A DNA stretch of 64,000 nt, from NCBI GenBank assembly GCA_020343875.1, contig CP070811.1:4882310-4946309 (forward strand). The letters are read 5' to 3'. The stretch's first letter is position 1, and each line of letters begins with the position of its first letter. The stretch comes from Anaerolineales bacterium (GTDB lineage Bacteria; Chloroflexota; Anaerolineae; 4572-78; NAK82). Position numbers and translations under genes: made by a program. Below the pieces are notes generated by a model. That model was not told the origin of the DNA and ran no database searches. It saw only the letters and a list, made by a program, of their open reading frames with translations. Shown piece by piece: positions 353 to 44,500 of this stretch.

Positions 353-3300
353 GCTCAGCGCAATTCGAAGGACGTGCACCTGGTGCGTGGCCGTGTCGGT
401 TACGAAGAGCGTGCCGGAGGCGGCATCCACGTAGATGCCCACAGGCTGGCGCAATGGCAGGCCTCCCGCCTGCGTCCAGCGAGTGAGCAGCTGCCCGTCG
501 GGCGTATAGCGCAAAATGGCGCCGTCGTCCGGGGCTGTCACCAGCAGACTGCCGTCGGGTGCCCAGGCCAGGTGCGGGCCATCGAAAGCAACGCTAGGCG
601 GGATGGGCCACTCGCTCAGGCTGTTCCCCCGCCGATCCAGGCGCTGGATGCGCTGGCTGCGCGCCTCAGCCACATAATAGGTATCGAGCCCGTCCGCCGC
701 CACATCCACCGGATCGCTCAGCTGGCCCGGCCCGCTGCCCAGGGCCCCTAGCCGCCCGGCCATATTGCCCGCCGAGTCAAAGAAGACCAGTCGCGCCCCG
801 CCTGTGTCAGTCACCACCAGCGTGTCATCTTCCAGGACGGTTAGCCCCCGCGGATGGAAAGTCTGGCTGGAAGGGCCGGCCACCCGATCCAGAGGCGTAC
901 CCTCCGCATCAAAGCGATAGATCCAGCCCGGCAGCGAATCCAGCACCAACAGCCGCCCCTGGCTGTCCACACCCAGGGCCAGTGGCTCCTCAAATGGCTC
1001 CTGCCCCCCCGACCATGCCGTTCGGAAGGCCCCATCTCGACTCAGAGCCTGCACCCGCCGGTTGCCGGTGTCGGCCACAAAGACCGTGTCGTCGAGCACG
1101 GCCACGTCACGCGGCTCCCAAAACTGTCCCTCTCCGTCGCCAGGCGTGCCCCACGTCGCCAGCCAGACCAATTCCATCGGTCCCAAGGTAGCCCCCACCG
1201 GGGGTGTCTCAGCCTGTGGGGCATAGTCCTGGATGGACTTGGCCGCCCGGCTGGGCCACAAGTATTGGGTCGGGATGATCTCCTTTTCGCCGCCGGGACG
1301 GGTCCAATACAAATGGATCTGGGAGCGATCGGTCCAATCCTGGTAGGTGATGCGCAGGTCGTGCAACCCGGCTGGCAGGGTGACGTACTCTTCGACGTAC
1401 TGGTCAGGCACTGTGGCCTCGATCACCGGCTGGCCATCCAGGAACAGGCGGGCTTCATTGACCGATTGCAGCCCCAGGGCATACACGCCGCCGTAGGGCA
1501 CATCCAATACCCCCGTCCACTCCACGCTATAGGGGCGCGGCAGCGGCGTCAAATGAAAATAGACGTTCAGAACCGGGTCTATCCGCTCCAGGGCCGGCTC
1601 GCCCTGCCAGGCAGGATCGGCATAGTACCTTCCCAGCAACCCATGCCCGCTGACCGGAAATCGGTACAGCGCCCACTGAGGGATGGTGCCCGCCTCCCCT
1701 GTCGGCAACTGCCAGGCCAGACGAACACGCCCTTCTCCACCGGCCACGTGCAATCGCAGCCCGTGATTCCCCTGGGCCAGCCAGGCGCCCACACTCAGCT
1801 GCCCCACTCCCTGGCTGACTTCGCCGTCCAGTGTCAGCGTTACCCGCCCTGGCGTTTCCACGCTCAACGCGTAGTAGCCATACTCCGGCGCGTAAAGAAC
1901 ACCATTCCACTCGGCCACAAAGGGGGGCTGGGGAGATACCGGGTCGGGCCAGCTCGTATCTATCACCGGCGAGCGGCCGCTGGCCACCGGGATTCCCTCC
2001 CCTTCCCAGTCGTCGCCGGCCCAATAGCGGAAGTCGAGCCCTTGCACGCTGGCCACGTCTTGGGGTTCCAGTTGCAAGACGTAGACAACGGGTGGTCGCT
2101 CGGAATCGGAGGGCAACGTCTCAAACGAACCGGTCAGGTACACCTGTCGTCCCAGATCGAAAACCCATGCTTCGTCCGGGTGAATGAAATACACTACCGG
2201 CCGGCCGGCCGGCTCGCGGGCGGGCAACGCATCCGGCAGGAGCATCACTTTACGCAGGTCAGCCGTCGATTCCTCTGCGGGCGCGTGAAAACGAATGCTG
2301 GGTTGATCCAGAAAGAACGGCGACAGAAAATAGACTGGCTCGTCTCCCAATTGCGCCATACGTTTGCCTACCAAGGTTTCGGCCGTGGAAAAAGCCCGCC
2401 ACACCGCAAAATCACCCGCCTGCCGCTCGAAGTACATGGCCCCGTTGCTGACGGCGATAAAGCCCAGGCCCGCCACCACCGGAATCAGGCTGTAACGGGG
2501 CCGCTTGATGCGAGCAGCCCACCTGAGTTCCAGCCACAGCGCCTCCAGGCTCAGAGCTATGAAATAGGCCACCGCCGGCAAGGCAGCTATAGAGCGCAAC
2601 GACTGGGGCGCCTCAAAATCAAGCGTAAGGATGCCGCCTGCCAATCCAATCGGCCACAATAGCAAGAAGAACGTGCTACCCGCGTCCCGCCGGGCGATGG
2701 CCAGGCCCAGCCCCAAAGCAAAAAGTACGCCCGACAGTCGATCCAACGTGGGCGCGCCCGGCAAGTTGTGACGCCCATTGACGTCACCCTGGTAATTGAA
2801 CATCAGCAGGTGTTTGCGGGCATTTCCGAGCAAGGCCCGTCCCAGGTTGGGCTCGTCACGGCTCTCGAAGATGGACACCGTGCGAGTCCGCCACCAGAAA
2901 ATATCCGGGTGCCGGGCTGCAAATTGCGCCACCGGCATCATGGCCAACCAGGCAGCCACCACTAGCAGCCCCAGACGCAGCCCAACCTGGCGCCCGCTGC
3001 CCGACTGCCGATCAGATATCTGGCCAGTTTCTCCCGATCTGCTCGACGGCCTGCCCTGCTCACCTGCAGGCAGCCAGTCTTGCCGGGCAGGTACCCCCCT
3101 ACCCCGGCTCCCCAGCCTCCTGACCAGGACAAACAGAAGCAGTGCCCCCACGAAAAGTCGGAACGCGCCATAAAAACTCAGCCCAAACCCCAGGCACAGG
3201 CCGGCCCAGACGATGGGCTGCATGCGGCCAGTGCGCAGCGCGCGCAGGCCAAAATACAGGCTGGCGAATTCAAAGAAGGGGGCATCAATCCCGGTCATAG

Positions 3301-4237
3301 CGATGCGGCTGAAATTAACGTGCCAACGCATGGTCGCCACCAGGAAGGCCAGCAGCAGGCCCCAGCCTGGCCCCTTCCATTCCCGGCCAAACAGGTAAGC
3401 AAAAAGCACGCCCCCTACCCCAAACAGAACCGGAACTACTCTCAAAGCGGGCGTGCTGACTCCAAATAGCCGAAAGGAGAACGAGAAAAGATACAGCAGG
3501 TGCGCTGGCAGATTGATAGGCTCCCAAAATACGGGTCGAAAACTGGGGTCACCCAAAATACGGCGCGCTTGGATGCCGGCTACAGCCTCGTCGAACCAGG
3601 TTCCGAATGGAAGCGAAAAGAAGTGGAAGAGGCGAAAGAAAAGCGCCAGCAGCAGAGCGCCCCACAGCAGGCTAAGGGCGGAGGAGATAATCAAGGGCCT
3701 GGGCGACGCCTGTCCCCCGTTCGAGGTTCCCTGGTGGCTGATGCGTGGCTCCGCCAGCCATATCCCGGCCCCAAAGAAGGCCAGGCTGACAACATACCAG
3801 GACCAGGCGATGCGGTTTTGCGTTTCGAACGTGAACAGACTCAGGGAGGCAAACGAAAGGATCAGCCCCGCCAGCGCCAGGCCTAAGCCCACCCAGCCGC
3901 GAATACCGGGCGCGACTCTGAGCTTCGCCTGCCAGGGGCGACGGCTCAGGGAGTATTCACGCTCAAAGGGGGCATCTGGTCCGCTGGCGGCCTTCTCCCG
4001 GGCCGCCCCGCCCCGGCTGATCTGGACCGCAAAGAGGGGAATGGCAACCGCGTACAGAACCAGTCCTTCCAGCAGGCGCTGGCTGGCAAAGAGGTTCTGG
4101 GCCAGCCAACCCAGAGCCAGCGCCCCCAGGGCCCAGGCCAGGTGATCCAGCTTGCGACGGGCCGGTAGGCCAGGCAAGGGCTGGGCAGGGATCACGTCTG
4201 CAGCTGGTGCAGACTGGGCGGGGGGAGCATCGTTCAC
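344..4237 (-). CDS. large membrane protein: N-terminal polytopic GT-C (ArnT/PMT, GT39-like) glycosyltransferase region, two PA14 domains, C-terminal six-bladed NHL-repeat beta-propeller
   Basis: 1297-aa ORF. The N-terminal half has many hydrophobic helices. There are two PA14-like segments (YWAGDDWEG..., GRYYADPAWQGEP...LRITYQD). The C-terminus has repeated NHL-like blades (FVADTGNRRVQAL, LVVTDTGGARLVFF, YYVAEARSQRIQRL, LFVTDTATHQVHVL). Confidence 0.8.
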   Translation of the reverse strand: MNDAPPAQSAPAADVIPAQPLPGLPARRKLDHLAWALGALALGWLAQNLFASQRLLEGLVLYAVAIPLFAVQISRGGAAREKAASGPDAPFEREYSLSRRPWQAKLRVAPGIRGWVGLGLALAGLILSFASLSLFTFETQNRIAWSWYVVSLAFFGAGIWLAEPRISHQGTSNGGQASPRPLIISSALSLLWGALLLALFFRLFHFFSLPFGTWFDEAVAGIQARRILGDPSFRPVFWEPINLPAHLLYLFSFSFRLFGVSTPALRVVPVLFGVGGVLFAYLFGREWKGPGWGLLLAFLVATMRWHVNFSRIAMTGIDAPFFEFASLYFGLRALRTGRMQPIVWAGLCLGFGLSFYGAFRLFVGALLLFVLVRRLGSRGRGVPARQDWLPAGEQGRPSSRSGETGQISDRQSGSGRQVGLRLGLLVVAAWLAMMPVAQFAARHPDIFWWRTRTVSIFESRDEPNLGRALLGNARKHLLMFNYQGDVNGRHNLPGAPTLDRLSGVLFALGLGLAIARRDAGSTFFLLLWPIGLAGGILTLDFEAPQSLRSIAALPAVAYFIALSLEALWLELRWAARIKRPRYSLIPVVAGLGFIAVSNGAMYFERQAGDFAVWRAFSTAETLVGKRMAQLGDEPVYFLSPFFLDQPSIRFHAPAEESTADLRKVMLLPDALPAREPAGRPVVYFIHPDEAWVFDLGRQVYLTGSFETLPSDSERPPVVYVLQLEPQDVASVQGLDFRYWAGDDWEGEGIPVASGRSPVIDTSWPDPVSPQPPFVAEWNGVLYAPEYGYYALSVETPGRVTLTLDGEVSQGVGQLSVGAWLAQGNHGLRLHVAGGEGRVRLAWQLPTGEAGTIPQWALYRFPVSGHGLLGRYYADPAWQGEPALERIDPVLNVYFHLTPLPRPYSVEWTGVLDVPYGGVYALGLQSVNEARLFLDGQPVIEATVPDQYVEEYVTLPAGLHDLRITYQDWTDRSQIHLYWTRPGGEKEIIPTQYLWPSRAAKSIQDYAPQAETPPVGATLGPMELVWLATWGTPGDGEGQFWEPRDVAVLDDTVFVADTGNRRVQALSRDGAFRTAWSGGQEPFEEPLALGVDSQGRLLVLDSLPGWIYRFDAEGTPLDRVAGPSSQTFHPRGLTVLEDDTLVVTDTGGARLVFFDSAGNMAGRLGALGSGPGQLSDPVDVAADGLDTYYVAEARSQRIQRLDRRGNSLSEWPIPPSVAFDGPHLAWAPDGSLLVTAPDDGAILRYTPDGQLLTRWTQAGGLPLRQPVGIYVDAASGTLFVTDTATHQVHVLRIALSSE

Positions 4238-4283
4238 GCGTGCGACTCTATCGCCTCCGTGGCCATGTCAGATGACGCCACGC

Positions 4284-6038
4284 TCAAAACTCGGACGAGA
4301 TCAAGAAGTAAATGCTCTCGATATCTTCTTCGCTGCCCTCGAACTTCTTGCCGTTGGTGCGGTTGGCCAGGGTAGCCATCAAATCTTCGTCGGCGTCCTT
4401 ACCATAGGCAATGGTGTAGATCTTGACACTGCTGGCCTCAGCACCGGAGGGCAGCCGGCTGAGCATATCAGCCTGGCTGGGGCCGCCCGCGACTTCGTTG
4501 AGCCCATCGGATAGTAGGACAACCCCATAGATACGCTGCTCGCCCTCCGCTTCGTGCTCTGCCTGCAAGCCATCGACACGCTCCAGCGCGTGAATGACAG
4601 ACTGGTATAGAGCGGTACCCCCGCCAGCGTACAATCCCTCAATGGTCAGTCGCAAATTCTCTGCGTTACTGCCCACCTCCCCGGCATAGGGCAACTCGAG
4701 TATCTCGTCGGAGAACACAATCACGTAAATCTCGTCAGCAGGGTCCATCTGGCCGATAAACAGGGTAGCCCCACGAACGGCCTGTTTAATTTTGGTCCCT
4801 TTCATACTACCCGAGACGTCGATCAACATCACCACGGTCGCCTTCTTCTTGACCTCGTGCCACGTGTCGATGATGTGGCTGATGATCTCGTCACTGGGAT
4901 AGGGCAGGTGTGGTACATCCTTCTGGGTGATGGCAGGCACAGCCCCGTGGGCCAGGTCTATGGGCGACTGCAACGCCACCGACTCGTCCGCGGGGCGCAG
5001 CCCCCATTTGACCGTACGCGCCTGCTGTGAGGGAGTGAGAAGATAATCGCGGAAGATCCCGGCAGCTTCAGCCTGCTCCGGGCTCACCCAATCGGCATTC
5101 AGAATGCAATAAGGATTCTGCACCCAAAAAGTGCCACCGGACGGATAGATCGCCACCAATGGGAATTGCAGTTCCTCGGCATGATCTGTATTCCACTTGA
5201 TGACGTTGCTCTCATACGAGGTAACCGCGTGCAAGTAGTCAGGCCCACGCTGGGTCATACGGGTCAGGATATCGGTGTCTGTTCTACCGTAATGGAAGAC
5301 ATTCCGTTCCACCGCGCCCACCCGCTCGGCAACCGTTTCACTTTTGACGCGCTCGACTGTCAGCCCTTCAGTTACCTCAGCCGCATCGTACACCTCGGCC
5401 ACCAGCGAGAGCATGCCCGAATTGCTATGTTCGGGGTGAGGGTGGCCGAATTTGAACTGACCCCATTCCGGGTGTCCATAAGCACCCCAGCCCTCAGGAT
5501 TATTCGATAGCGCGGCCAGGTCGTTCCAGCCGATGAGGGCATCAGGCCAACCCAAGGCGCGAGCCATTGGCTCCCACATAGCGATGGCCAGCGGCACTCG
5601 AATAGTGGCTGGGCACTCCGACTGAATCAGGTTCCGGCCGGTCCTGTCATTCCAGGTCTGGTTAATACGTGTCACCCACAATTGGCTGCCAGGGCTCCAG
5701 ACCGTAGGCAGAATCTCACCATCCAGGATGTCATTCATCGAACTGCCGGAGCCAACGTGGTAGGCTACCACCACAATCGGCCGCCCGTCGGCAACGGTTT
5801 TGCCTTCAGCGTTGAAAGACTCCACCACCTCGTTTATCCAATCCTGCTTGGTATTCGACGAGTGAAACTCGACCACGACGGCATCTTGCGGCAAAGGGGT
5901 GCCAGGCACGTCACTACCAGCAGAGGGTAGCCCCACCGGCGAGCCGCCCAAAAACGTCACCCCGGCCATGACCATCACTATCACACAAGCAAACGCCATG
6001 ATCAAAAAGAAGACAACACGTGTGCGACTGAGGTTCAC
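4284..6038 (-). CDS. membrane-anchored solute-binding-protein-like domain fused to a von Willebrand factor A (vWA) domain
   Basis: 584-aa ORF with an N-terminal TM helix. The C-terminal vWA has a MIDAS-like motif (VVMLIDVSGSMKG ... LLSDG). It lies 46 nt upstream of the 344..4237 gene on the same strand. A GGAGGGA RBS precedes the start. Confidence 0.8.
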   Translation of the reverse strand: MNLSRTRVVFFLIMAFACVIVMVMAGVTFLGGSPVGLPSAGSDVPGTPLPQDAVVVEFHSSNTKQDWINEVVESFNAEGKTVADGRPIVVVAYHVGSGSSMNDILDGEILPTVWSPGSQLWVTRINQTWNDRTGRNLIQSECPATIRVPLAIAMWEPMARALGWPDALIGWNDLAALSNNPEGWGAYGHPEWGQFKFGHPHPEHSNSGMLSLVAEVYDAAEVTEGLTVERVKSETVAERVGAVERNVFHYGRTDTDILTRMTQRGPDYLHAVTSYESNVIKWNTDHAEELQFPLVAIYPSGGTFWVQNPYCILNADWVSPEQAEAAGIFRDYLLTPSQQARTVKWGLRPADESVALQSPIDLAHGAVPAITQKDVPHLPYPSDEIISHIIDTWHEVKKKATVVMLIDVSGSMKGTKIKQAVRGATLFIGQMDPADEIYVIVFSDEILELPYAGEVGSNAENLRLTIEGLYAGGGTALYQSVIHALERVDGLQAEHEAEGEQRIYGVVLLSDGLNEVAGGPSQADMLSRLPSGAEASSVKIYTIAYGKDADEDLMATLANRTNGKKFEGSEEDIESIYFLISSEF

Positions 6039-8362: not shown

Positions 8363-9448
8363 TCAGAATAGCTTGCGCCGACGAGTGATCGGGGATAAAC
8401 GAAATGTCGACGCACGGTCCCCCGTCCAGGGGGAGGAAGGCACGCCGATCAGGCCAGCCACGTCAAGGAGCACACTGTCGTAGTTGACGCGCCAGCCAGC
8501 GAAGTCACGCCAAGCTTGATCGCGGTCGCGCTTGAGTGGGACCCCATCAGATGCAAGCCGCTCACAGGCCGCATCGTACTCCTCCCGAGTCACGCTAATG
8601 GGCTGGGTAGGATCAGGATCAGGGCTATATGGTATGCGGAAGTAATCAGCAATATGACGCAAGGCCAAGTATCCTGCCCGGATGCACAGAGCTGCCCGGG
8701 AGTCGCTGGGGATATCCACCGCCGACAGGGTCAGCGAAGCAGCATCAAGCACTGCTCCTGCGGCTGTGACCCAGGAATGCTCAGCACGCGGCGACCGGAA
8801 GAAGGCTACTGCCGGCAAAGAGGTATGACTCTCTTCAATATCCGCGAACCACGCCTCCCATACTTCCCATTGCTCGCTCAACCGATCCAGTCCCTGGATC
8901 CGGTGGAAGCGCAAGATCATCTCTACGGCCGAAGGGGGGTTACCTGCACGCACCTCGAGCAGGGTGACGGCTGCCTCGCGGCGTGAAAAAGCTGCATACA
9001 TGGTGGGCAGATAGGCTATCAGCAACGCGACCAAGACCAGGCCGATGGTTGCCTCGGAGAATACCAGGATTGTCTCTGGCAAGTCATCAACGGTCGCGAA
9101 GCCAAGAGTAAGCAGCGACGAACCGCTGACACGAAATGCCTCGTACCACGGCTCGACGCCCAGCCCCCAGAACATGCCAGTATATCCTAGCGTTACCAAG
9201 CTGAGCCAGGCGGGAGGTAACAGCAGCAGGCTGATTGGAGCATAGAAAGCCAGGACTTGATCTCGCTCGGCATAGGAACCTGCCCCCCGCACTCGGGCTT
9301 CAAACAAGGACCGCACGGTTACGAACACAGCGCGGGAGAGCAGATCAGGTGCGCTGCGCGGAAGCACCAGGGTTTTGATAGCGGACAACAGCGCGCTGTA
9401 CACCACAACAACGCCAATCACAAAAGACAGGACTCGCAAGAATAGCAT
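8363..9448 (-). CDS. hypothetical membrane protein
   Basis: 361-aa ORF with 3-4 N-terminal hydrophobic helices and a soluble C-terminal half. It lies 18 nt upstream of 8003..8344 on the same strand. No confident family. Confidence 0.6.
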   Translation of the reverse strand: MLFLRVLSFVIGVVVVYSALLSAIKTLVLPRSAPDLLSRAVFVTVRSLFEARVRGAGSYAERDQVLAFYAPISLLLLPPAWLSLVTLGYTGMFWGLGVEPWYEAFRVSGSSLLTLGFATVDDLPETILVFSEATIGLVLVALLIAYLPTMYAAFSRREAAVTLLEVRAGNPPSAVEMILRFHRIQGLDRLSEQWEVWEAWFADIEESHTSLPAVAFFRSPRAEHSWVTAAGAVLDAASLTLSAVDIPSDSRAALCIRAGYLALRHIADYFRIPYSPDPDPTQPISVTREEYDAACERLASDGVPLKRDRDQAWRDFAGWRVNYDSVLLDVAGLIGVPSSPWTGDRASTFRLSPITRRRKLF

Positions 9449-9469: not shown

Positions 9470-10054
9470 TCATTTGGCCTGACGAGTAATGGATGAAAGC
9501 CATGCTCGCGCTCCGCCAGTGTGTATACTGGATTCGAATCTGGCCTCTCGGATGTAGTTGATCTTCCATCCTTCCTGAAACGAAGAACGAATCTCCGCCC
9601 GTGATACACGTCTTGGCCCGCCTGGGCCGAGCTCCCGTTCACTGAAACAGAGCGCATAGTATGTTCCCCCTGGACGCAGCACATGTGCCAGGCTTTTGAC
9701 AAACAGAGGGCGCTCCTCATCCGAAAAGGTGTGGAATAGTCCAGAATCTATGACCGTGTCGAATGTCCGCCCCAGGCGCTGCAGCTCAGTTGCGTCGCCA
9801 ACCAGGAAATTTGCCGCCAGCCCGCGTTCTTGAGCTTTGGTCTTGGCCTTTTCTATGGCGGCGGGGGCCGAATCGACTCCCCAGGCCTCCTGGCCCAATT
9901 CGGCCAGGTAGAGCACATGCTCGCCTGTCCCGCACCCTACGTCAAGCACGCGCCCTCGGATTTCATTGGCCTCCGAAAGGCGCACAATTTCTGCCTGGGG
10001 GCGGCCGATGTCCCAAGGTGGCGTGCCCGCATAAGCCGAATTAAAAGAACTCAT
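9470..10054 (-). CDS. class I SAM-dependent methyltransferase
   Basis: 194 aa with motif I VLDVGCGTGEH and the following acidic loop. Confidence 0.85.
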   Translation of the reverse strand: MSSFNSAYAGTPPWDIGRPQAEIVRLSEANEIRGRVLDVGCGTGEHVLYLAELGQEAWGVDSAPAAIEKAKTKAQERGLAANFLVGDATELQRLGRTFDTVIDSGLFHTFSDEERPLFVKSLAHVLRPGGTYYALCFSERELGPGGPRRVSRAEIRSSFQEGWKINYIREARFESSIHTGGARAWLSSITRQAK

Positions 10055-11040
10055 AAATGGATTTCCTCATCATCTAGTTAACTCGAAATAAGTAATGCGC
10101 ACTTTTGGGCCTACCGATAGGGGAAAGAGCGGGCAAAACTTCTTTCGGCTTAATTAGTATGGAGTTGGTGCGCTCTTCCTTGTTGCAAGGACCTGGCTAC
10201 GCCCGGTGCCCCCTTGCTGATCTAAATTCTAGCCAGCCAGTCATCGCGCAGGCACGGCAGTTTCGCCAGGTCTGCCTGCGCGCTGTCAGGGCACGCAAAA
10301 CCAACCAGAAATTGTTGGCCCATTTATTTAAGACAACGCGCTGCGGCGATTTCTTACCTTGCCTGTGCCACATTGGGGGAAAGTCATCGGGCATGCCGGC
10401 TGGAGCACAGCCCATCCGCAACCGACCCTATCCCTGACACGCCGTCCTGGAAACGTGTTTTGAACCAAGCGCGGACTGGCGGAACCCGCAGAGTGAGGAA
10501 GCTAGATCGATCTGAGGCTGGTTGAAGGGTACTTCGAGCACGGTGAGGGGGCGGCTGCTGAGGAAATCCTGGCCTAGGCGGAGGCCCAGCTGGCAGGCGA
10601 GGAACGACAAGGCTTAAGGGTATGGGCCACGTGGATACGCATTGCGCTACACCACCAAGAACAGGGTAGCTGCCTATGAGGTGTAGATACGCAAGACCGG
10701 GGTCAGGCTCTCAGGTGGCCCGTCCTCCTGCCGGCCTAACTACCAACCGACACTTCTGCCCGAGCCAAACCAAAACGCAACCGACACAGGGTATACAGGC
10801 AAATACCCAACCCAATTGCGTTCGAGCGAGACAACCAACACGGAGGCTGAACAAAAGGATGAGGGGTGTGCATAGATGCCACTTCTGGGGAGTTAGATTG
10901 CCCCAAATCGTGGCTTAATTGGCCCCCCCTCGGCATAAAAGGATGCCGTGCTCGCGCCTCTTCCGCCCACAACTTGCGCAAGTCTAAACTATGCACACCC
11001 CTCAGACAGATAATCAAAGCCTACTGCTGGAGAGCCAGGG
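10055..11040. ncRNA. 986-bp ORF-poor region; candidate large structured RNA, or a decayed/non-autonomous element. Strand unknown.
   Basis: No ORF longer than 110 aa in any frame, and the translations are R/P/Q-rich nonsense. Several nested helices are present: 10593..10609 with 10718..10733, 10623..10629 with 10714..10720, 10774..10780 with 10816..10822 enclosing 10789..10794/10803..10808, and 10860..10875 with 10989..11004. Flanking genes are both on the minus strand. Confidence 0.3.
10860..11004. repeat. perfect 16-bp inverted repeat (TGAGGGGTGTGCATAG / CTATGCACACCCCTCA) closing a 113-nt interior with hairpins
   Basis: Read directly: 10860..10875 is the exact reverse complement of 10989..11004. 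Interior hairpins are GCCAC(10878..10882)/GTGGC(10910..10914) with an inner TGGGG/CCCCA, and CGGCAT(10931..10936)/ATGCCG(10943..10948). Confidence 0.9.
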
Positions 11041-11559
11041 CTAGCGGCGCAATGCCCGCCGCGTTCCCTGGAACGCCAGCGCAACTACCAAGAGCGCAGC
11101 CAGCGCAGCCGTTATGGTGAAGGTAGTACCAGGCAATGTGCCGGTCACAGGCAATAGGGCATTGCCGCCACCAACCTCAAAACCTACCCACCAGTAGTGT
11201 ATCAATCCACCGCCTTCGTTACGCTGTTCGGCACGGACCGCGTAACTCCCATCTGCCGTCCCCTCGGGGACGTTTATGGTGGTTGAGAAGGTGCCGTCAT
11301 CGGCCGGATCAGCCTCTACCTCCGCGATGGCTCCCTCGCCTGTATCGCCATTGGTCACGATCATCACCTTGACCGGCAATTCGGCCTTAGCCCCTTCGCC
11401 AGTCACAGAAATGTCGGTGCCAGGATCGCCGTTGATGGGGCTAATACTGATGCGCAGAGTCGTCTCCGTTTCGCCGCCAGCAACAGCTGTGGACGCAGGC
11501 AACAATAGCACAGCAGCCAGAGTAATCACGCTCACAAGTCGCAAGGACATAGCCAACAC
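11041..11559 (-). CDS. secreted cell-surface protein with C-terminal LPXTG sortase sorting signal
   Basis: 172 aa with an N-terminal signal peptide. The C-terminus is LPVTG, then a hydrophobic stretch, then an RRALRR tail. Confidence 0.75.
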   Translation of the reverse strand: MLAMSLRLVSVITLAAVLLLPASTAVAGGETETTLRISISPINGDPGTDISVTGEGAKAELPVKVMIVTNGDTGEGAIAEVEADPADDGTFSTTINVPEGTADGSYAVRAEQRNEGGGLIHYWWVGFEVGGGNALLPVTGTLPGTTFTITAALAALLVVALAFQGTRRALRR

Positions 11560-11776
11560 CTCCTGTTACTGGAGCACATTCTAATTATGGAAACTGATTA
11601 TGTCCACGGCTATTATACCTTGAATTGGTTTATATGTCAAGTTTGATTTTTATGTCTAGAAATCGCCTCAACAAGGGGGTAAGGTGCCCTGCTGCCTTTT
11701 CACTTTGGGGGCATGAATGCGTCAGGGGCGATCACGTGAGGGTGCATGGAGATAGTGGGATTATCTGTGGGCGAAG

Positions 11777-13073: not shown

Positions 13074-13208
13074 TTATGTTACCGTGTGATCCGTTTCTTC
13101 TTCATCCAGTGAGAGTTTGCCGATCGTGCGTACGACGCCACGCTGCCACTGAGCATATGCTACCCCGATTAACATCAGCAGCAGCACTGATACCAGCAAG
13201 AACTCCAT
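13074..13208 (-). CDS. possible 44-aa small membrane protein (below the ORF-track cutoff)
   Basis: My own translation: MEFLLVSVLLLMLIGVAYAQWQRGVVRTIGKLSLDEEETDHTVT. It has one TM helix and an acidic tail. AAGGAG/GAAGAGGG lies upstream. It sits between the HK and the TolB-like gene on the same strand. Confidence 0.3.
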   Translation of the reverse strand: MEFLLVSVLLLMLIGVAYAQWQRGVVRTIGKLSLDEEETDHTVT

Positions 13209-15273: not shown

Positions 15274-16635
15274 TCACGGTCGATCTTCCGAGCGCGCCTT
15301 GAACTGGTCGGCTTGCTCTTGGGCTGCGTGTAGCGCGTCAGCCGGGTCAGCACCGTAAAAGGCAGCCTTAACGGCGTCAGCAAAAGCGCGTTCCACCTCG
15401 GGGAATGCATCCAAACGATACGGTCGTGCAGCATCAAGTTGAAACAAGAAGGGCTTGAGCAAGGGATTGCCCGCAAAATGCGGTGTGCTTTGCAGCCAAG
15501 CACGAGCCGGGTAATGTCCCAGGCGACGAGCCATGGGCAGCGCATAGCGATCACTGGTGGCCCATTTCATGAATTCAAAGGCAGTTTGGCGGTGCCGGGC
15601 GCCCCGTGGGATAAAAAGAGCCGTGCTACCCAGCGCCGAGGCCGCTCCTGCGCCAGCCGGAGTTTCGGGCAACTCCGTCACTGCCAGCGGGAAGTCGGGA
15701 GCCTGGCTTTGAATATAATGAATATCCCAGGGGGTGCCAAAGAACATGCTAATCTGACCCTTCAAAAAGAGTTTGCGCGGATCTTCATAATCACGGGGAC
15801 GCGAAGTCGGCAGTGGCCCGTAGCCATTGCGAGCCATAGAAGTCAGAAAACGAAGGGCCTCAATATTGTTTGGGTCATCCAAGGTAAAGTTGTACCCGAT
15901 AAAGGCATCCCCCACCAGCAAGTCTCCACCAGCCTCGGCCAGCCAAGCAAACACATACCACGGTTCAACCGTGAAGCCCAGTCCATACCTTGATCCATCA
16001 CCGCGAGTGAGGGTAACCGCGTCTTGCGCGAATTGCTGCCAGGTGTAGCCAGCGTCAGGATACGGAAGGTTGGCTTCTTCAAAGTGGGCCTTGTTGTAAA
16101 TCAACACCAGAGTGTAGATGTCCAGAGGAACACCATATTTCACGCCATCCCATGTCACTTCGTCCATTGCCTGCGACATGAACTCAGCTTCGGCATCCCA
16201 TTCTGCCCACAGATCATCGAGGGGCTCAGCGACTCCTTGCGCCGCCATAGCAAAGGCGTGTCCCTGAACCAAATCTGGAGGATTGCCTACTTGGAGGGCG
16301 GCTTGTACTTTGCCAGGTATTGTCTCGCGCACAAACGCCTGAATATTCACGTCGACGTTGGGATAGGCGCGCTCGAAGTCAGTGGCCATTTCACGGAACA
16401 GAGGGTCACCTGCCACAAAATCAAGATCTAGCCACACATCTAGGGTGATAGGTTCGGACGAGATAGCCGGGTTGGGCGGAGGGGCATCACCCGGGACCTC
16501 CCCGTCGGAAGCACTCCGATCCTGTGCACACCCCGCTACTAGCAGGGCAATAGCCAACAGAAGAGCACCCAGCCGATGGCGGAGCAAGTGTGGACACCCA
16601 GGGTGTATCACTTTCCTTCTCCGGCTGAGATCCAA
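15274..16635 (-). CDS. ABC-type extracellular solute-binding protein (family 1, sugar-type) lipoprotein
   Basis: 453 aa with lipobox LLVAGC and typical SBP_bac_1 length and composition. It overlaps the upstream response-regulator gene by 28 nt. Confidence 0.85.
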   Translation of the reverse strand: MDLSRRRKVIHPGCPHLLRHRLGALLLAIALLVAGCAQDRSASDGEVPGDAPPPNPAISSEPITLDVWLDLDFVAGDPLFREMATDFERAYPNVDVNIQAFVRETIPGKVQAALQVGNPPDLVQGHAFAMAAQGVAEPLDDLWAEWDAEAEFMSQAMDEVTWDGVKYGVPLDIYTLVLIYNKAHFEEANLPYPDAGYTWQQFAQDAVTLTRGDGSRYGLGFTVEPWYVFAWLAEAGGDLLVGDAFIGYNFTLDDPNNIEALRFLTSMARNGYGPLPTSRPRDYEDPRKLFLKGQISMFFGTPWDIHYIQSQAPDFPLAVTELPETPAGAGAASALGSTALFIPRGARHRQTAFEFMKWATSDRYALPMARRLGHYPARAWLQSTPHFAGNPLLKPFLFQLDAARPYRLDAFPEVERAFADAVKAAFYGADPADALHAAQEQADQFKARSEDRP

Positions 16636-17285
16636 CCCCGCCGGACCGCATGCATGACCGCTTCGGTACGAGAGCCAACACCCAACTTGGAAAAGATGTT
16701 CGACAGATGAGCCTGCACTGTGCGATCACTTATGTAAATCTGTTGGCCAATCTCCTTGTTAGTCAGTCCTTTGCCCACCAGCCTCAGAATCTCCAACTCC
16801 CGCTCCGTGAGCCCGTCATATTCGTCTTTGACCCCGGCCAGGGCATCGGGTAGAGGCCGCCCGCTGGCAAACTGAGCGACGACCTTGCCAGCCACCGATG
16901 GGTCCAACGTCGACTGCCCGGCCGCCACCGTACGGATGGCTTTAACCAGCTCCTCCATTTCAGCCGTCTTTAGCAAATAACCGTTGGCACCGGCTTGGAG
17001 CAGTGCGAAGACATACTCGTCGTCATCGTGGGCGGTCAGCACCAACACCGCCACTTCTGGGGCTTCCGCCTTGATGCGACGAGTTGCCTCCACGCCTGAC
17101 AACTTGGGCATCCGAACGTCCATAACCACCAGATCTGGCCTGAGCTCCTTGGCCAACTGTACGGCTTCCTCCCCATCGGCAGCCTCGCCAACGACACGCA
17201 GATCAGGTTGGCGTTCCAGCAATTGGCGAGTGCCAGCTCGGACCACGGCATGGTCGTCAGCCAGAATAAGGCTTATGGTGTTCAT
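16608..17285 (-). CDS. two-component response regulator, NarL/LuxR family (REC + HTH)
   Basis: 225 aa. REC motifs (LILADDH, DLVVMDVRMP, LTAHDD) and a LuxR HTH (LTERELEILRLVGKGLTNKEIGQQIYISDRTVQAH). Confidence 0.9.
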   Translation of the reverse strand: MNTISLILADDHAVVRAGTRQLLERQPDLRVVGEAADGEEAVQLAKELRPDLVVMDVRMPKLSGVEATRRIKAEAPEVAVLVLTAHDDDEYVFALLQAGANGYLLKTAEMEELVKAIRTVAAGQSTLDPSVAGKVVAQFASGRPLPDALAGVKDEYDGLTERELEILRLVGKGLTNKEIGQQIYISDRTVQAHLSNIFSKLGVGSRTEAVMHAVRRGWISAGEGK

Positions 17286-17395
17286 GCATTTGCTCCTGTA
17301 ACACTGTCAGAAAGCCCGTCCGGGTTACCCACAACCGCACAAAGATAAGCAGCAAGATTGTGTGTTCAGTCTACCTTGTGTGGATTCAGTATTCC

Positions 17396-17424
17396 ATTAT
17401 ACCAGCGATGGAGAGGTGTGACAA
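17396..17424 (-). promoter_or_regulatory. sigma70-type promoter for the RR-SBP-HK operon: TTGTCA-N17-TATAAT with an extended -10 TG
   Basis: Minus-strand read: TTGTCA cacctctccatcgctgg TATAAT. About 100 nt upstream of the RR start. Back-to-back with the plus-strand promoter, with the two -35 hexamers 6 bp apart. Confidence 0.6.
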
Positions 17425-17430
17425 AGATCA

Positions 17431-17459
17431 TTGACATGACACAACCTTGGTGATATAAT
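17431..17459 (+). promoter_or_regulatory. perfect consensus sigma70 promoter TTGACA-N17-TATAAT
   Basis: TTGACA at 17431..17436, a 17-nt spacer, TATAAT at 17454..17459. The next plus-strand gene starts at 17771, giving a ~305-nt leader. Confidence 0.75.
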
Positions 17460-17770
17460 TACCAAGTAGACATATTGCTTCCCATTTTCTCCAACCTTAA
17501 AAGCACCATTATCGCCTCGAACGACAACACCACCCCACCATATCCATTTCTTGATGACGAGAGGGGACTACCACGCCAGGGCCCACAGCCGATGCGTGCC
17601 TGCTGGCAAGCTGCGCTGATCTGGAGGTGGGCCTCCTGGAGAATGCGTTGCCCTTTCTCGGCTGCCCCTACCACCAAGGGTGGTTCGACATACATTCCGT
17701 CTTTCGGGAATTGATGGCAGATATGGCAGCGCCAATCTATGCCAGATGATGCCCGGACAACAGTGTAACC

Positions 17771-20700
17771 ATGGCTGACACAAACCGATCCTCCAATCTC
17801 AGTCTTCTTGAGCAACCCGACCGTGCTGACGAGTTTGCCGCCTCCCCCCTGGAGCAGGCACGCACGATGCTCGATATGCTCCGAGTGGGTAGATCAGGTG
17901 GACTGGCTATCGCCCAGTGCGACGATTTTGGCCTGCGCTCTCAACTCTTTGCCCACTTCAAGCATCGGCTGGCTGAATACGATGTTTATCTGTTCCCCTA
18001 TAGGGTGACCGATAGGGACTTGAATCTGGGACGCACTTTGTATGATCTGAGCCTGCATCGGTTCAAGCGCCTGGAATCAACTGTGAGATTCAAGTCGATC
18101 GTCATTTTCGTTTACGGGATTGAGAGTTACAGCGAAGTACAGAACTCTCAGTTCCTCAACGGGCTCAATTCCTTGCAGGATTCATTGAGGGCGATCGAAC
18201 AGCCAGTGGTCATTTGGGGCACCAGCGAGTTCTGCGCCCAGTTAGCCCGCTCTACCCCTGATCTTTGGGACTCGAAAGAAATGCTATTTTCCTTTCCCTA
18301 CACGGCCCTGGAGCGAGTAGAAAGGGAAGAAACAAATACGCCACCCAAAGGGCCACGGCACCGGTTTCCGTTTCTAACACGTTATCTGCAGATGGTAGTC
18401 AAAGACCCTGAATACGCCATCTGGCAGGATCTGTATCTACCACTCAAGGCGACCCGTGTCACGGACACGACTAGATTGGTACCCCCGCGGCATACCCTGA
18501 CCGACAGCGAGATGGCCCAGCTTCAGCAGGCTATCGTCGACACAGATACTCGAGCAGCCGGGGAAATTATCTTTGAGCGGGGTGCACCCGGTGAAACGTG
18601 TTACATCATCGTCGCCGGCGAAGTAGAGGTTCTGGTGCCTGATGCGCTGGGCAGCCAGGTCGTGGTCTCAACCCTGGGGCCAGGGGATTTCTTTGGCGAG
18701 ATCGCCCTACTGGAGAGCGTGCCGCGCACAGCAACTGTCCGGACCACGCAACCTTCTCACTTGCTGGTACTCGACCGCCGCTCGTTGGGAACGGTTTCGC
18801 AGGTGGCTCCCTCCGTCGCAGAGATGTTGATGCAGATTAGTCGGCGCCGGCTGGAAACCCGGATGCGAGATCCACAAGAGCTGGTATCACCCCTGCGTCG
18901 CTTCGCCCTCGAAGGTCACAGCCTGATCCGGCAGAGGCCAGTTGATGTGCGCCAGCTTATCAGCAACGATCAGTACGCGATGGTGCTAGGCGAGGCCGGC
19001 GCCGGCAAGACAACTGTGCTGCGACGCATTATGCTCGACCTGGCCAACGAGGGCCTTCACTCCCTCGCGGAGCCAGAAGGAACGGGCGTTGTCCCTTTCT
19101 TCATAAGGTTGAATATGCTTACCCCCGATCGACAAGTAGAAGATCTGATCCTCGAGTCGTTGCGAAACTATGGCCTTCCTGACTTCGAGGCCAGTGAAGA
19201 CTTAGAAGTACTCCTGAAGGAGCAAGGCCCTGACAACTATCTAGCTGGCAGCTTTGTCTTCTTGATGGACGGCCTGGACGCAATGGACAACCAATCGGCG
19301 GTTAGGCAAGATCTAAATCGGTTCATCCAAGATTATAGCCATCACCGATTTGTGATGGGCTGCCGAGTAGAAAACTACGTACCCGTCGCCCGTTTTCGCC
19401 CAGTTATGCTTCAGCGCTTGACTGGATACGATATCGAGGACTTCCTGACCAGATATATTGGACCGGACCAGGGACAGCGCATCGCCCGTGAGATTTACGG
19501 CGATACTCAACTAGAAGATCTAGCCCAAACCCCGCTGGCCCTTTATATGTTCGCTCAGATCTTCAAGAACGGTGAGGCAGCCCTTCCCAAGAACCGGGGC
19601 ATCCTATTTGAGCGATTCACCAACAACCTATTGGAGCGTGCCGACACCGAATGGTGGAAAATCTACGGCCGGTCAAAGAGCCGAGTACCTTTGACGGTCC
19701 GCCGCGCTGTACTGGCTTCACTGGGCCTGCGGATGCAAGGAAACGAGGTGTGGTCCCTTCCAAGCAGTCGCTGGATGGCGACTGTTACCAACGAGCTTGA
19801 CCTCTTCCGTGAGAAAGCTTCACCAGAAGAACGAGAAGCCACACGCACTGTGTCGCCTCATGACGTGATAGAAGAGATTATGTATAGCGGACTGCTTCGG
19901 TACTCCGGTGGTCGTGAGTGGTTAGAATTTGCCCACCATTCATTGCAGGAATTCTTCGCGGCATTGGCTCTGCGTGGTCAAAAAATAGACCTCGAACTAC
20001 TTGTGCAAGGGGCCGAGAATCGCCACCAATGGTCAGGAACCATTGTGTTGCTGTACGGCATCTCCAATTCCAAGACACCTCTCTTCTTCAAGATCTTGGG
20101 GAACGGCAATGATTACAGTCGGATCTGGTTGGACGCCGCATGTCTGTCCAGTGCTGGGGAGCACATTGCGTATGTCGCCGAGGACTTAGAAACAGCGCTG
20201 TCCAGTGGGGACATCCTTGACGAGCAACAAAGATTTGGTGCGCTATTTAGCGTGGGCCTGGCCTACCGACAATTGGAGCGTTATCCAGAAGCCTTGACCT
20301 ATCTGCATCGCGCTGCGGATTCGCAACCCGATTCGGCCGAGGTGCAATACGAACTTGGCTCTCTATATCGTCTCGTGGATCAACATGATCGTGCCATCAA
20401 GCACCTGGAAGAAGCCATTCGCATACGGCCTGACTTTGTGGACGCCTATAATCAGCTTGGCATCACATACTACGACCAGGGCAAACACGCTGAGGCATTA
20501 ACCATCTTCCGAGCGACGGCCCAGCTTGAGCCGTCCAATCCTCTTCATTACCACAATTTGGGCAGTGTCCTCAAGTTGCTGCGCAACTATCCCGCCGCAC
20601 GAGATGCTTTTCAAACGGCTATCGAACTCAAAGCGGACTACATAGAAGCACTCACCCAGCTCGATATTCTGGAAAAGGCACTGGCTTCCGGGGTGATTCA

Positions 20701-21751
20701 AGTTCTCGACCGCATTCCCCTTCTCAGCCGGCTAACACTGGAGCAAAACATGTTGCTTGCCAACCGGCTCAAGGTCATCGAATACAAGCCGGGGCAGATT
20801 GTATTTCACATGGGAGAGATGGGTGACACCTTTTATATTATCGAGACAGGTGAAGTAGAAGTGCTGGCACCTGACGTGAAAGGCTCGCCAAATGTACTAG
20901 ACCGATTGGGGCCAGGCGACTTCTTCGGAGAGATTGCATTGCTGCGAGCGGTTCCCCGTACAGCCACCATTCGAGTCGTTGCGCCGGTCCGACTGCTGGC
21001 GCTCAGCCGCGCAGATTTCAACGACGTACTGACACGCTACCCATCTCTAGCACATCGGCTGGAAGAGTCGTCAGGCGAACGGCTGCTGCGTGATCGCCAC
21101 CGGGGTCGAACCACAAGCCTGGACCGCTACTACGACCCGGCATATATTGAAGAGCTGGTCCAGCAGAAAGAGGTCACGGTGGTGATGGGCGACATCCATG
21201 GCTCGACCTTTCTTACCCACGCAATTGGGCCGGAACTCATGGTGGAATTTCTGGATGAGTACCTCAAGCGCATGTCTGCCATCATCGTCCAAGCTGGGGG
21301 AGCCATGGATCGTAGCCTGGGTGACAGTGTCATGGGAGTTTTCGGCTCTTTCCACCAACGATATGGGGACAGGGAAACGAGTTCCGGCACCCGAGCCCTG
21401 CTGGCTGCCCTTCATATGCGTCAGGACTTCTCAAACCTGCGTGCCAAGTGGTCCGAACAAAATCCCGAGTTTGCACAGACCGGTATGGGCGTTGGCCTCA
21501 GTACAGGCTCAGTGGCTAAAGGAACCATCGGCTCGGAAACAGCAATGGTTGGTTCAGCCGTCAACTTGGCGAACAAGCTCTCCAAGCTAGCCATCAAGGG
21601 CCGTCAGGAGAGTGAGATCTACGCGGATGAACGCACCTGCCAGATGCTGGGGGATTCTGTCATCGCTGAACTACTCGACCCGGTTTACACTTCACGTAAG
21701 GCCGGCGGCGTGCTGCTCAGAGCATACCGCATCATTCAGCGGCGGGGGTAG
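17771..21751 (+). CDS. multidomain STAND signalling protein: unassigned N-terminal domain, cNMP-binding, NACHT P-loop NTPase, TPR, cNMP-binding, class III nucleotidyl cyclase
   Basis: 1326 aa. cNMP domains are at nt ~18503..18850 (FFGEIALLESVPRTATV) and ~20693..21055 (FFGEIALLRAVPRTATI). NACHT is at ~18968..19450 (Walker A GEAGAGKTT, Walker B FVFLMDGLDA, MGCR). TPRs are at ~20228..20665. The cyclase is at ~21167..21748 (VVMGDIHGST, LGDSVMGVFG, SAVNLANK). Confidence 0.9.
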   Translation: MADTNRSSNLSLLEQPDRADEFAASPLEQARTMLDMLRVGRSGGLAIAQCDDFGLRSQLFAHFKHRLAEYDVYLFPYRVTDRDLNLGRTLYDLSLHRFKRLESTVRFKSIVIFVYGIESYSEVQNSQFLNGLNSLQDSLRAIEQPVVIWGTSEFCAQLARSTPDLWDSKEMLFSFPYTALERVEREETNTPPKGPRHRFPFLTRYLQMVVKDPEYAIWQDLYLPLKATRVTDTTRLVPPRHTLTDSEMAQLQQAIVDTDTRAAGEIIFERGAPGETCYIIVAGEVEVLVPDALGSQVVVSTLGPGDFFGEIALLESVPRTATVRTTQPSHLLVLDRRSLGTVSQVAPSVAEMLMQISRRRLETRMRDPQELVSPLRRFALEGHSLIRQRPVDVRQLISNDQYAMVLGEAGAGKTTVLRRIMLDLANEGLHSLAEPEGTGVVPFFIRLNMLTPDRQVEDLILESLRNYGLPDFEASEDLEVLLKEQGPDNYLAGSFVFLMDGLDAMDNQSAVRQDLNRFIQDYSHHRFVMGCRVENYVPVARFRPVMLQRLTGYDIEDFLTRYIGPDQGQRIAREIYGDTQLEDLAQTPLALYMFAQIFKNGEAALPKNRGILFERFTNNLLERADTEWWKIYGRSKSRVPLTVRRAVLASLGLRMQGNEVWSLPSSRWMATVTNELDLFREKASPEEREATRTVSPHDVIEEIMYSGLLRYSGGREWLEFAHHSLQEFFAALALRGQKIDLELLVQGAENRHQWSGTIVLLYGISNSKTPLFFKILGNGNDYSRIWLDAACLSSAGEHIAYVAEDLETALSSGDILDEQQRFGALFSVGLAYRQLERYPEALTYLHRAADSQPDSAEVQYELGSLYRLVDQHDRAIKHLEEAIRIRPDFVDAYNQLGITYYDQGKHAEALTIFRATAQLEPSNPLHYHNLGSVLKLLRNYPAARDAFQTAIELKADYIEALTQLDILEKALASGVIQVLDRIPLLSRLTLEQNMLLANRLKVIEYKPGQIVFHMGEMGDTFYIIETGEVEVLAPDVKGSPNVLDRLGPGDFFGEIALLRAVPRTATIRVVAPVRLLALSRADFNDVLTRYPSLAHRLEESSGERLLRDRHRGRTTSLDRYYDPAYIEELVQQKEVTVVMGDIHGSTFLTHAIGPELMVEFLDEYLKRMSAIIVQAGGAMDRSLGDSVMGVFGSFHQRYGDRETSSGTRALLAALHMRQDFSNLRAKWSEQNPEFAQTGMGVGLSTGSVAKGTIGSETAMVGSAVNLANKLSKLAIKGRQESEIYADERTCQMLGDSVIAELLDPVYTSRKAGGVLLRAYRIIQRRG

Positions 21752-29453: not shown

Positions 29454-29475
29454 GAGCATCCTCACTTGTCAAAAG

Positions 29476-29506
29476 CAGAGGGGGCGATTACCTCACGCCC
29501 CCTCTG
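29476..29506 (-). terminator. 11-bp perfect GC-rich hairpin plus CUUUU, immediately upstream of the gyrA RBS
   Basis: CAGAGGGGGCG at 29476..29486 pairs with CGCCCCCTCTG at 29496..29506, with a 9-nt loop. On the minus strand it is followed by CTTTTGACAAGTGAGGATG. It lies about 180 nt downstream of the rpsU stop. Confidence 0.45.
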
Positions 29507-29684
29507 ACTAGATAGACCGATTGGATGTGGGTCGTCTCAGCGTGGACTTCGACGCTTCTAGACAAGACCTGCAAAGACGTCCCAACGTGCATCCGGTACC
29601 CTGTCACAAAACAATGACGAGACAAAGGCCGCACCCATAAAGGCTGAGTCTAACTAACCCAGATCACTTTGGCGGGGCACAGAG

Positions 29685-29894
29685 CTACCGACTCTGTCGT
29701 TTTGCCATCCGTCGCAGCATCTTGCGCCGCGCCTTGCGTGCCGCGCGTTGCTTCGCCAGGCGGCGCTGTTCGCTCTTGGAAACATACCAGCGTTTCTTAC
29801 GATAAGTGCTGAGAATGCGTCCTTTAACCACTTCCTTGCGGAATCGCTTCAGTAAGCTTTCTTGCGATTCACCCGGTCGCAATTTCACAGTCAT
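29685..29894 (-). CDS. rpsU: 30S ribosomal protein S21
   Basis: MTVKLRPGESQESLLKRFRKEV... basic 69-aa protein. An AAGGAGGTGA RBS precedes the ATG at 29894. I trimmed 33 codons from the track ORF. Confidence 0.9.
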   Translation of the reverse strand: MTVKLRPGESQESLLKRFRKEVVKGRILSTYRKKRWYVSKSEQRRLAKQRAARKARRKMLRRMAKRQSR

Positions 29895-30056
29895 TGTCTT
29901 GGTCTCACCTCCTTTCGTAACCGGGGGATCAACTTGAGAACCATAATGACTTGCACACAACTTTTTGGAAGCCTGCCTGCACCTGTGCCACACTGACCGG
30001 TGCAGTGACCAACCCTGGCCTGCCCACCCACGCAGGCCACAGGATGTACAGCCCTC

Positions 30057-43676: not shown

Positions 43677-43743
43677 AGCTTACCTCCTTCTTTAATAATA
43701 GATTCTTCAGTAGGGACAGGGAATGGCCCCCAACCATCCACTC

Positions 43744-43784
43744 CCAAAACAAAAAGCGTTATGCCTAGAAAGCACAACGCTTTT
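43744..43784 (-). terminator. intrinsic terminator inside the AOR 5' leader
   Basis: Minus-strand RNA: AAAAGCGUUGUGC-UUUCUAG-GCAUAACGCUUUU (13 bp including one G.U), followed by UGUUUUGGG. It ends about 70 nt upstream of the AOR ATG (RBS AAGGAGG). Confidence 0.6.
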
Positions 43785-43942
43785 CACTACACAAATGTCT
43801 AGACCGCCAAAGGCTAGACCTCCCGCTTGCGGCAACACCCACCACGGGACAAGAGCCTGCGTCAAAACAGAAAACCGCCTTTCATTACTGGTCTTCAGCG
43901 ACAAACAGCAGTGGCGGAAACAATGGATCGGAGTGCAGTCCT

Positions 43943-43971
43943 ATTATATCACCGACAACACCGACTGTCAA
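43943..43971 (-). promoter_or_regulatory. perfect consensus sigma70 promoter TTGACA-N17-TATAAT (minus strand)
   Basis: Minus-strand read: cgtcaTTGACAgtcggtgttgtcggtgaTATAATagg. About 260 nt upstream of the AOR start. Confidence 0.75.
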
Positions 43972-44041
43972 TGACGGATAAGCGCGCACGCGAATAGAGG
44001 ATGTAAGTCTCGCGCACTGCTCAACCAGACAGACCGCACCA

Positions 44042-44076
44042 GAAAAAAACAGGGACACGCCACAGGCGGCGTGCCC
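44042..44076 (-). terminator. rho-independent terminator of rpsT
   Basis: Minus-strand read: GGGCACGCC-GCCUGU-GGCGUGUCCC (9 bp plus a 1-nt bulge), followed by UGUUUUUUU. It starts 37 nt after the rpsT stop. Confidence 0.8.
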
Positions 44077-44112
44077 GGTTGTAGTTCGCTTACCCGAGCA
44101 GAGCGATTTGAA

Positions 44113-44385: not shown

Positions 44386-44500
44386 AGCTTGTTCCTCCTA
44401 TGCATAATCCAACGCATGATGATACACTGATTTCACAATTTTGTCCAATCCCGACAGTCAACGCGCGTACGCTTGAGTTGAGCCTTTCGCCACGATTGTA

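Follow-up and report, generated by a model that had tools for sequence, protein, structure and literature searches.

An open-reading-frame-poor gap in an Anaerolineales genome is probably a rearrangement scar with a dead regulator tail and one terminator-like element

The window of Anaerolineales DNA analysed here, 64 kb (64,000 nucleotides, nt) in full, contains a gap of 986 nt at 10055..11040 that lies between a methyltransferase gene and the gene for a protein of 172 amino acids (aa), both on the minus strand. A preliminary description, made from the letters of the sequence, had headlined this gap as a candidate large structured non-coding RNA (ncRNA), a claim unsupported by Rfam, folding, conservation or polymorphism. 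The gap is instead probably a scar of rearrangement and deletion rather than an RNA gene, and comprises a regulator gene's dead tail, spacer in decay and a single 145-nt element resembling a terminator. This reading is borne out by a gene relic, by synteny with related loci, by folding that is not in excess, by the absence of conservation and by high polymorphism.

The gap was confirmed to be poor in open reading frames (ORFs), with none longer than 110 aa between 9470..10054 and 11041..11559 (both minus strand). The picture of a tightly packed region with neighbours fewer than 100 nt apart is only partly true, as other gaps of approximately 490–820 nt separate ORFs of at least 150 aa elsewhere in the window, examples being 43677..44500, 29466..30056 and 17286..17770.

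Contrary to the earlier statement that no six-frame translation carried a recognisable motif, the plus strand frame from 10506 translates as IDLRLVEGYFEHGEGAAAEEILA, a stop, then AEAQLAGEERQGLRVWATWIR, and shows homology to the C-terminal end of a TPR regulator. The C-termini used for comparison were those of the regulators of the related loci L105 (ending in IDLWLADLHLRRGERAAADEALSRAETHLVEGERQGLREWAKKLRTDLQQ before the stop) and L015 (ending in IELWLAELYLQRGERAAAEEALQRAEARLAGGERRGLQAWAERVRREFLR before the stop). With the L015 C-terminus as query, tblastn returned a match at the relic of 58% over 45 aa (E 2e-11), and the L105 regulator matched there with 50% over 48 aa, the protein-level homology to the two covering 10506..10640. 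The intact L105 regulator carries Pfam TPR_MalT (PF17874) above the cut-off (E 6e-16) and matches the NCBIfam AfsR and MalT models weakly. Measured against the MalT/AfsR-type STAND regulators, in which an AAA ATPase is followed by a TPR_MalT sensor region, 10506..10650 aligns at 50–58% at the amino acid level with the last TPR helices and the C-terminus; the window relic differs in having no start codon and in containing stops, and is unable to encode a regulator.

The lesions comprise an in-frame TAG at 10575..10577, together with a TGA at 10494..10496 and a TAG at 10503..10505 upstream, and the frame closes at the TGA at 10677..10679. No variants were present at the stop codons of the relic in any of five same-species assemblies, independent of one another, that extend across the gap. 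The substitution pattern of the relic is nevertheless of the coding type, with third codon positions the most diverged: identity at codon positions 1/2/3 was 69/69/50% relative to L105 and 67/75/58% relative to locus L011, from a small sample of 36–48 codons. More than 90% of the regulator gene is missing in the window and about 5% survives; the rest of the L105 regulator, at least 470 residues, has no recognisable counterpart in the window copy, and no paralogue that might be the source of the relic was found elsewhere in the window. The relic and the intact L105 regulator share their orientation, both being convergent with the 172-aa gene, and their ends lie at comparable distances from the 172-aa stop (284 nt for the L105 regulator stop, about 360 nt for the window relic). 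The in-frame stops, the truncation and the L105 orientation together identify 10506..10679, on sequence comparison, as the dead 3' fragment of a MalT/AfsR-like regulator gene that is intact in L105. The preliminary description had counted remnants of a known gene in BLASTX or tBLASTn against a large RNA, and such a remnant was found; the alternative it had offered, of a heavily decayed gene, holds for the relic, which covers only about 170 of the 986 nt.

The regulator of L015, a high-GC relative, is itself imperfect. At 2278..5451 (minus strand) of that locus, upstream of a PIG-L deacetylase gene, a SARP/AAA/TPR regulator is readable only with at least two frame switches, and the gene caller had split it into spurious small genes. 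Either this regulator is decaying there too or the assembly contains indel errors.

To place the relic in context, distant Chloroflexota relatives were reached through the neighbouring gene for a 361-aa protein, the methyltransferase and the 172-aa protein. The most common layout among them (layout B; L013/L014, L096, L108 and L109) consists of the 172-aa gene, about 360–390 nt, and then the 361-aa gene, with no methyltransferase. A PIG-L operon precedes the 361-aa gene in L011, L097 and L099, in the order PIG-L, methyltransferase, flavin mononucleotide (FMN) reductase in the first two; L099 lacks the methyltransferase, and the pair of PIG-L and methyltransferase occurs in L016. In L105 (layout A) the gene next to the 172-aa gene is the regulator described above, which is convergent with it and at least 525 aa long. 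Locus L011 contains the same truncated tail, then a spacer homologous to window 10298..10505, then PIG-L and methyltransferase. Because layout B occurs in several relatives, the stretch between the 172-aa and 361-aa genes must have been rearranged repeatedly.

Homology of the gap itself is confined to these remnants. The gap was searched against L013, L014, L016, L096–L099, 80 reference-genome methyltransferase loci and 11 metagenome loci; nhmmer and blastn found homology in three loci only, at 7..384 of L011, at 2379..2522 of L015 and just inside the 3' end of the L105 regulator, in each case at the relic or the spacer beside it. In nhmmer, positions 434–743 of the gap (minus strand) aligned with 7–384 of L011 (E 5.5e-16), and in blastn 10298..10505 aligned with the L011 spacer at 63% over 139 nt with large indels, which is about equal to the 60–65% identity of third codon positions in the neighbouring genes of the two loci. 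Conservation in relatives is thus limited to the coding relic and to one block that is about as similar as third codon positions. Conservation does not favour an RNA gene either, as relatives whose neighbouring proteins are 72–80% identical have other sequence or genes at the position of the gap. Absence or lack of conservation in close relatives, with no compensatory changes in the helices, had also been named in the preliminary description as counting against a large RNA, and this is the pattern observed. No match was found in plasmid and phage collections. A decayed PIG-L gene was considered as the origin of the gap and rejected, since neither tblastn nor a five-sequence PIG-L profile with filters off found a remnant in it; the profile with default filters also found no PIG-L anywhere in the window. 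Locus L097 has an ORF-poor gap of its own, of 1.2 kb (3489..4681, 1193 nt), upstream of its PIG-L/methyltransferase operon, which is dissimilar to the gap in the window.

From these arrangements we infer the following order of deletions. The ancestral layout would have been the 172-aa gene followed by a convergent MalT/AfsR-like AAA/TPR regulator, as in L105, and beyond it an operon of PIG-L, methyltransferase, FMN reductase and the 361-aa gene, of the kind found in L011 and L097. A deletion in this lineage would then have removed all but about the last 50–60 codons of the regulator and placed the surviving tail beside the old spacer upstream of PIG-L, at a junction common to L011, and PIG-L and the FMN-reductase gene would have been lost later. 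What remains, from right to left, would be the former intergenic region between convergent genes (10680..11040), the dead tail (10506..10679), the old spacer (10298..10505) and 243 unassignable nt.

Variation within the species is consistent with a region of this kind. About 30 same-species contigs, including the metagenome-assembled genome (MAG) GCA_041550955.1, encode the identical methyltransferase protein, and the gaps there are 98.7–100% identical to that of the window. Polymorphism was taken from the five same-species contigs covering the gap from end to end, each compared with the window. Divergence in the gap was 0.61–1.12%, as against 0.17–0.67% at third positions of the flanking genes and 0.10–0.27% at first and second positions. 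Thirteen of the 17 variable sites in the gap lie in 10298..10660, most sites being in the block 10298..10505, and the 145-nt element has none. Varying more than third codon positions, indels included, the gap shows no constraint. As the same-species copies are about 99% identical and those of the 145-nt element are all identical, they are uninformative on covariation.

Five further independent assemblies (L003, L007, L008, L009 and L010) end inside the gap, at approximately 10116/10117, 10364, 10418 and 10505. Four of these five contig ends lie at most one base from a polymorphic position (10118, 10365 or 10419), and 10505 is the boundary of the relic. Differences between strains within the gap appear to be what breaks the assemblies.

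The proposal that the entire 986 nt form one large structured ncRNA of the OLE, GOLLD, ROOL or raiA kind draws on the many short complementary segments visible in the gap and on its folding as a whole, for which the minimum free energy (MFE) gave a z-score of -3.5 on the minus strand (relative to 20 shuffles) and of -1.8 on the plus strand. About three quarters of this excess stability (roughly -23 of -30 kcal/mol, by subtraction of MFE values) is supplied by the 145-nt element, however, and the 805 nt that remain without it gave z -1.96 on the minus and -0.64 on the plus strand, within the spread of the background (48 windows, mean -0.14, standard deviation (sd) 1.12, minimum -2.63). Likewise, 150-nt windows slid across the gap gave z between -2.4 and +2.2, except for 10855..11004, which holds the 145-nt element and reached -4.0 on the plus and -5.8 on the minus strand (background of 240 windows, mean -0.09, sd 1.1).

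The individual domains that had been drawn fare accordingly. The complementary segments listed for them exist in the sequence, although several had been placed one base off: GGCAGG-cg-AGGA lies at 10592..10603, TCCT-CCTGCC at 10723..10732, GGGCCAC at 10624..10630 and GTGGCCC at 10715..10721, while the CTACACC/GGTGTAG pair had been located exactly. Domain 1 (10592..10732), which these segments were said to form, is at chance level (z -0.5 on the plus and -1.35 on the minus strand) and overlaps the dead coding sequence. Domain 2 and a hairpin near 10246..10281 do reach z of -3 to -4, only at hand-picked boundaries; the domain 2 hairpin, hand-cut to the 49 nt of 10774..10822, gave -3.1 on the plus and -3.8 on the minus strand. 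The other hairpin is present and has 10 bp instead of the 9 described, spanning 10245..10254 with 10273..10282. Perfect hairpins of at least 9 bp with loops of 3–40 nt number 18 in the window against about 8 in shuffles. A 10-nt direct repeat, CAACCGACAC, is also present in the gap as described; an exact 10-mer repeat within 986 nt has an arithmetic expectation by chance of approximately 0.5. The caution that only the longest helices carry weight was right, in that solely the 145-nt element outlies the background.

Searches for known RNA families returned nothing. With cmscan, all models of Rfam 15, which include OLE, GOLLD, HEARO, ROOL, raiA, group I and II introns, RNase P and tmRNA, gave zero matches in the whole window at gathering thresholds. 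When 9900..11200 was searched at E <= 10, the best matches (E 0.31 to 7.3) were to unrelated eukaryotic and viral families, with scores about a third to half of the gathering scores, and are noise. ARAGORN found no tRNA or tmRNA. The gap resembles the large Rfam RNAs (OLE, GOLLD, HEARO, ROOL and raiA) in being long, non-coding and part of a compact bacterial genome, and differs from them in that no covariance model matches it, relatives share no conserved core with it and its folding is in excess only at one hairpin-closed element. Given in addition that close relatives have other sequence or genes in its place and that its polymorphism, indels included, exceeds the third-codon-position level, a single large RNA is highly improbable.

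The 145-nt element was correctly recognised in the preliminary description as closed by 16 bp. Its arms, TGAGGGGTGTGCATAG (10860..10875) and CTATGCACACCCCTCA (10989..11004), pair perfectly over 16 bp and are 84% complementary over 25 nt. The MFE of the element is -70.8 kcal/mol (z -5.7) on the minus strand and -61.3 kcal/mol (z -5.0) on the plus strand, where it is about 10 kcal/mol weaker and no T-tract follows. Only four perfect inverted repeats of at least 12 bp with loops of up to 200 nt occur in the 64 kb, relative to about 1.0 expected in shuffles. The longest of the window lies elsewhere, a 17-bp hairpin at 62241..62284 (GAATGTCATTCTGCCTGCAT..ATGCAGGCAGAATGACA, 10-nt loop) that is not followed by a T-tract on the plus strand.

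On the minus strand the 145-nt element begins 37 nt past the stop of the 172-aa gene (11041..11043), and its stem ends at 10860, directly followed by UCCUUUUGUU. Strong hairpins with U-rich tails are found in the same position past the 172-aa gene in relatives, namely in L100 and L101 (AAAAAAGGGTGCC...GGCACCCTTTTTT), in L105 (GTGCCCC...GGGGCATTTTTC) and in L108 (an 18-bp perfect stem, then TTCCGTTTCTCC). On the basis of the stem, the U-rich tract past the stop and the hairpins of the relatives, the element is read as probably a terminator or a structure protecting the 3' end of the 172-aa gene, in an unusual form. We infer a function in which, on the minus strand, it would terminate or 3'-stabilise a 172-aa transcript started at the 11640 promoter. 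It shares with intrinsic terminators a GC-rich perfect stem with the U-rich tract UCCUUUUGUU directly after it, on the sense strand and past a stop codon. Canonical terminators have a loop of 3–8 nt; the loop here is 113 nt and is itself folded, and the U-tract is interrupted. A consensus terminator scan did not report the element.

The same inverted repeats could instead be the termini of a miniature inverted-repeat transposable element (MITE) or other small mobile insertion in the convergent intergenic region. The size of 145 nt is typical of MITEs, the sequence is non-coding, the perfect 16-bp ends are far beyond chance and none of the relatives examined has the element in the equivalent region; its identity in the five same-species contigs spanning the gap, which is polymorphic elsewhere, would fit a recent arrival. 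Against an insertion, no target-site duplication is present, as the flanks (...AACAAAAGGA and GACAGATAAT...; AAAAGGA and GACAGAT) share no direct repeat. Nor was a second copy, even a degenerate one, found in the 64-kb window when an arm was searched with up to 3 mismatches, or with a covariance model in about 260 kb comprising the window and 30 related loci. Similarity to plasmids and phages was likewise absent. A scan of viral contigs with a 15-nt arm gave 14 contigs with one match each, single 15–17-mers, blastn there gave only 15–19-nt identities, and these matches are read as chance. The interior hairpins and the sense-strand U-tract are better explained by a terminator, and a mobile insertion is considered unlikely.

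A further reading takes the gap, or its right-hand third (10680..11040), as a lineage-specific structured RNA on the minus strand, either a small RNA (sRNA) derived from the 3' untranslated region (3' UTR) or an attenuator of read-through into the methyltransferase/361-aa operon. Inside the gap, the promoter scan found nothing resembling a sigma-70 promoter for the methyltransferase, and only one promoter-like site, the consensus at 11640, is placed to drive minus strand transcription into the gap, so that read-through is plausible. The minus strand also folds the more stably, the shape is an unusual multi-branch one closed by the 16-bp stem, and polymorphism is low in 10677..11040, with two of the 17 variant sites. 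These features are offset by the lack of an Rfam match, by folding at background outside the element and by relatives with 72–80% identical neighbours, which have no homologue or structural analogue and carry plain hairpins instead; with all available copies of the element identical, no covariation signal is assessable. Such an RNA is accordingly quite improbable. There is a similarly slim chance that the 145-nt element is something new, either a lineage-specific conditional terminator or attenuator or 3'-UTR-derived sRNA, or the first copy of a new Chloroflexota MITE family. If it were a new regulator, the 145-nt RNA would set the read-through from the 11640 promoter into the operon of the methyltransferase and the 361-aa membrane protein.

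Several observations weigh against the interpretation of the gap as a deletion scar with a terminator. About 170 of the 986 nt are positively assignable to the dead gene, and the blocks 10055..10297 and 10680..10859 are without homologue, such that calling them debris is an argument from absence. The low number of variable sites in 10677..11040 (two of 17) may reflect constraint, although marginally (about p 0.05, Poisson estimate). On the minus strand the gap without the 145-nt element remains slightly more stable than shuffles (z of about -2), close to the low end of the background. The element, with its structured loop of 113 nt, is not a canonical terminator, and a simple terminator scan shows no enrichment of canonical terminators in this genome.

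Under the scar interpretation, the gap is ordinary and no new RNA class is called for, residual novelty being confined to the 145-nt element, which would be of modest, lineage-limited interest if it turned out to act as a regulator or to be mobile. The outcome is a clean negative in which a helix-rich, ORF-poor stretch of a GC-rich genome turns out to be a deletion scar with one helix above chance. Candidates of this type can be settled quickly by synteny with relatives and by folding compared with shuffles and genomic background. The case also documents repeated rearrangement around the 172-aa and 361-aa genes in these Chloroflexota. The features are collected in the table.

Table 1. Features of the gap and its surroundings, in window coordinates
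Position	Strand	Feature	Evidence
9470..10054	-	Class I S-adenosylmethionine (SAM)-dependent methyltransferase, 194 aa	Pfam Methyltransf_25, E 1e-23
10055..10297		Spacer directly upstream of the methyltransferase, at the position of PIG-L in relatives	Without homologue in the relatives
10298..10505		Block homologous to the L011 spacer between relic and PIG-L	nhmmer, blastn
10506..10679	+	Pseudogene relic, last ~50 codons of a MalT/AfsR-like AAA/TPR regulator	tblastn
10680..10859		A/C-rich (+ strand) stretch, putative remainder of the old convergent intergenic region; domain 2 hairpin, CAACCGACAC repeats	No homologue in relatives
10860..11004	-	145-nt element, perfect 16-bp closing stem with two to three small hairpins inside	Inverted-repeat search, folding
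11041..11559	-	172-aa protein, hydrophobic N- and C-terminal segments, no family assignment	72-80% conserved in relatives
11612..11640	-	Sigma-70 promoter, perfect consensus (TTGACA, 17 nt, TATAAT), upstream of the 172-aa gene	Promoter scan

Small genes do not account for the gap. The four longest ORFs within it had no Pfam match, and the 110-aa ORF had no NCBIfam match. This ORF (10105..10437, plus strand) was rejected as coding because polymorphic single-base indels at 10118 and 10208 disrupt it and because gene calls are inconsistent between same-species contigs, only some of which have it called as a gene.

In relatives the methyltransferase gene directly follows the PIG-L deacetylase gene, the pair being adjacent in L011, L016 and L097. 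In the window it has a ribosome-binding site, GAGGAAA, 7 nt ahead of its ATG (minus strand), within 10055..10297. Among species-representative genomes, the protein is closest to that of one Chloroflexi MAG (L016, 75%) and then to archaeal relatives from Nitrososphaerota, Thermoplasmata and Bathyarchaeia MAGs, at 62–65% aa identity. Since these archaeal matches outrank other bacteria, horizontal transfer of the methyltransferase gene is suggested.

The 361-aa protein (8363..9448) is highly conserved and looks membrane-embedded, and is without a Pfam or NCBIfam family. Among 8,000 candidates about 7,900 homologues were found at E <= 0.001, the top 120 at 63–80% identity, and its gene is the constant anchor of an otherwise rearranging neighbourhood.

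Further from the gap, a 44-aa ORF at 13074..13208 (minus strand), between a histidine kinase and a PD40/Tricorn-like gene, is called at the same place in same-species contigs (L001 and L002) and in a 76% relative (L013), and possibly encodes a conserved small protein. At 17396..17459, in the divergent gap between 16608..17285 (minus strand) and 17771..21751 (plus strand), two sigma-70 promoters stand back to back, both having the extended -10 TG. The plus strand promoter (17431..17459) is a perfect consensus, and the minus strand promoter (17424..17396) matches at 11 of 12 positions.

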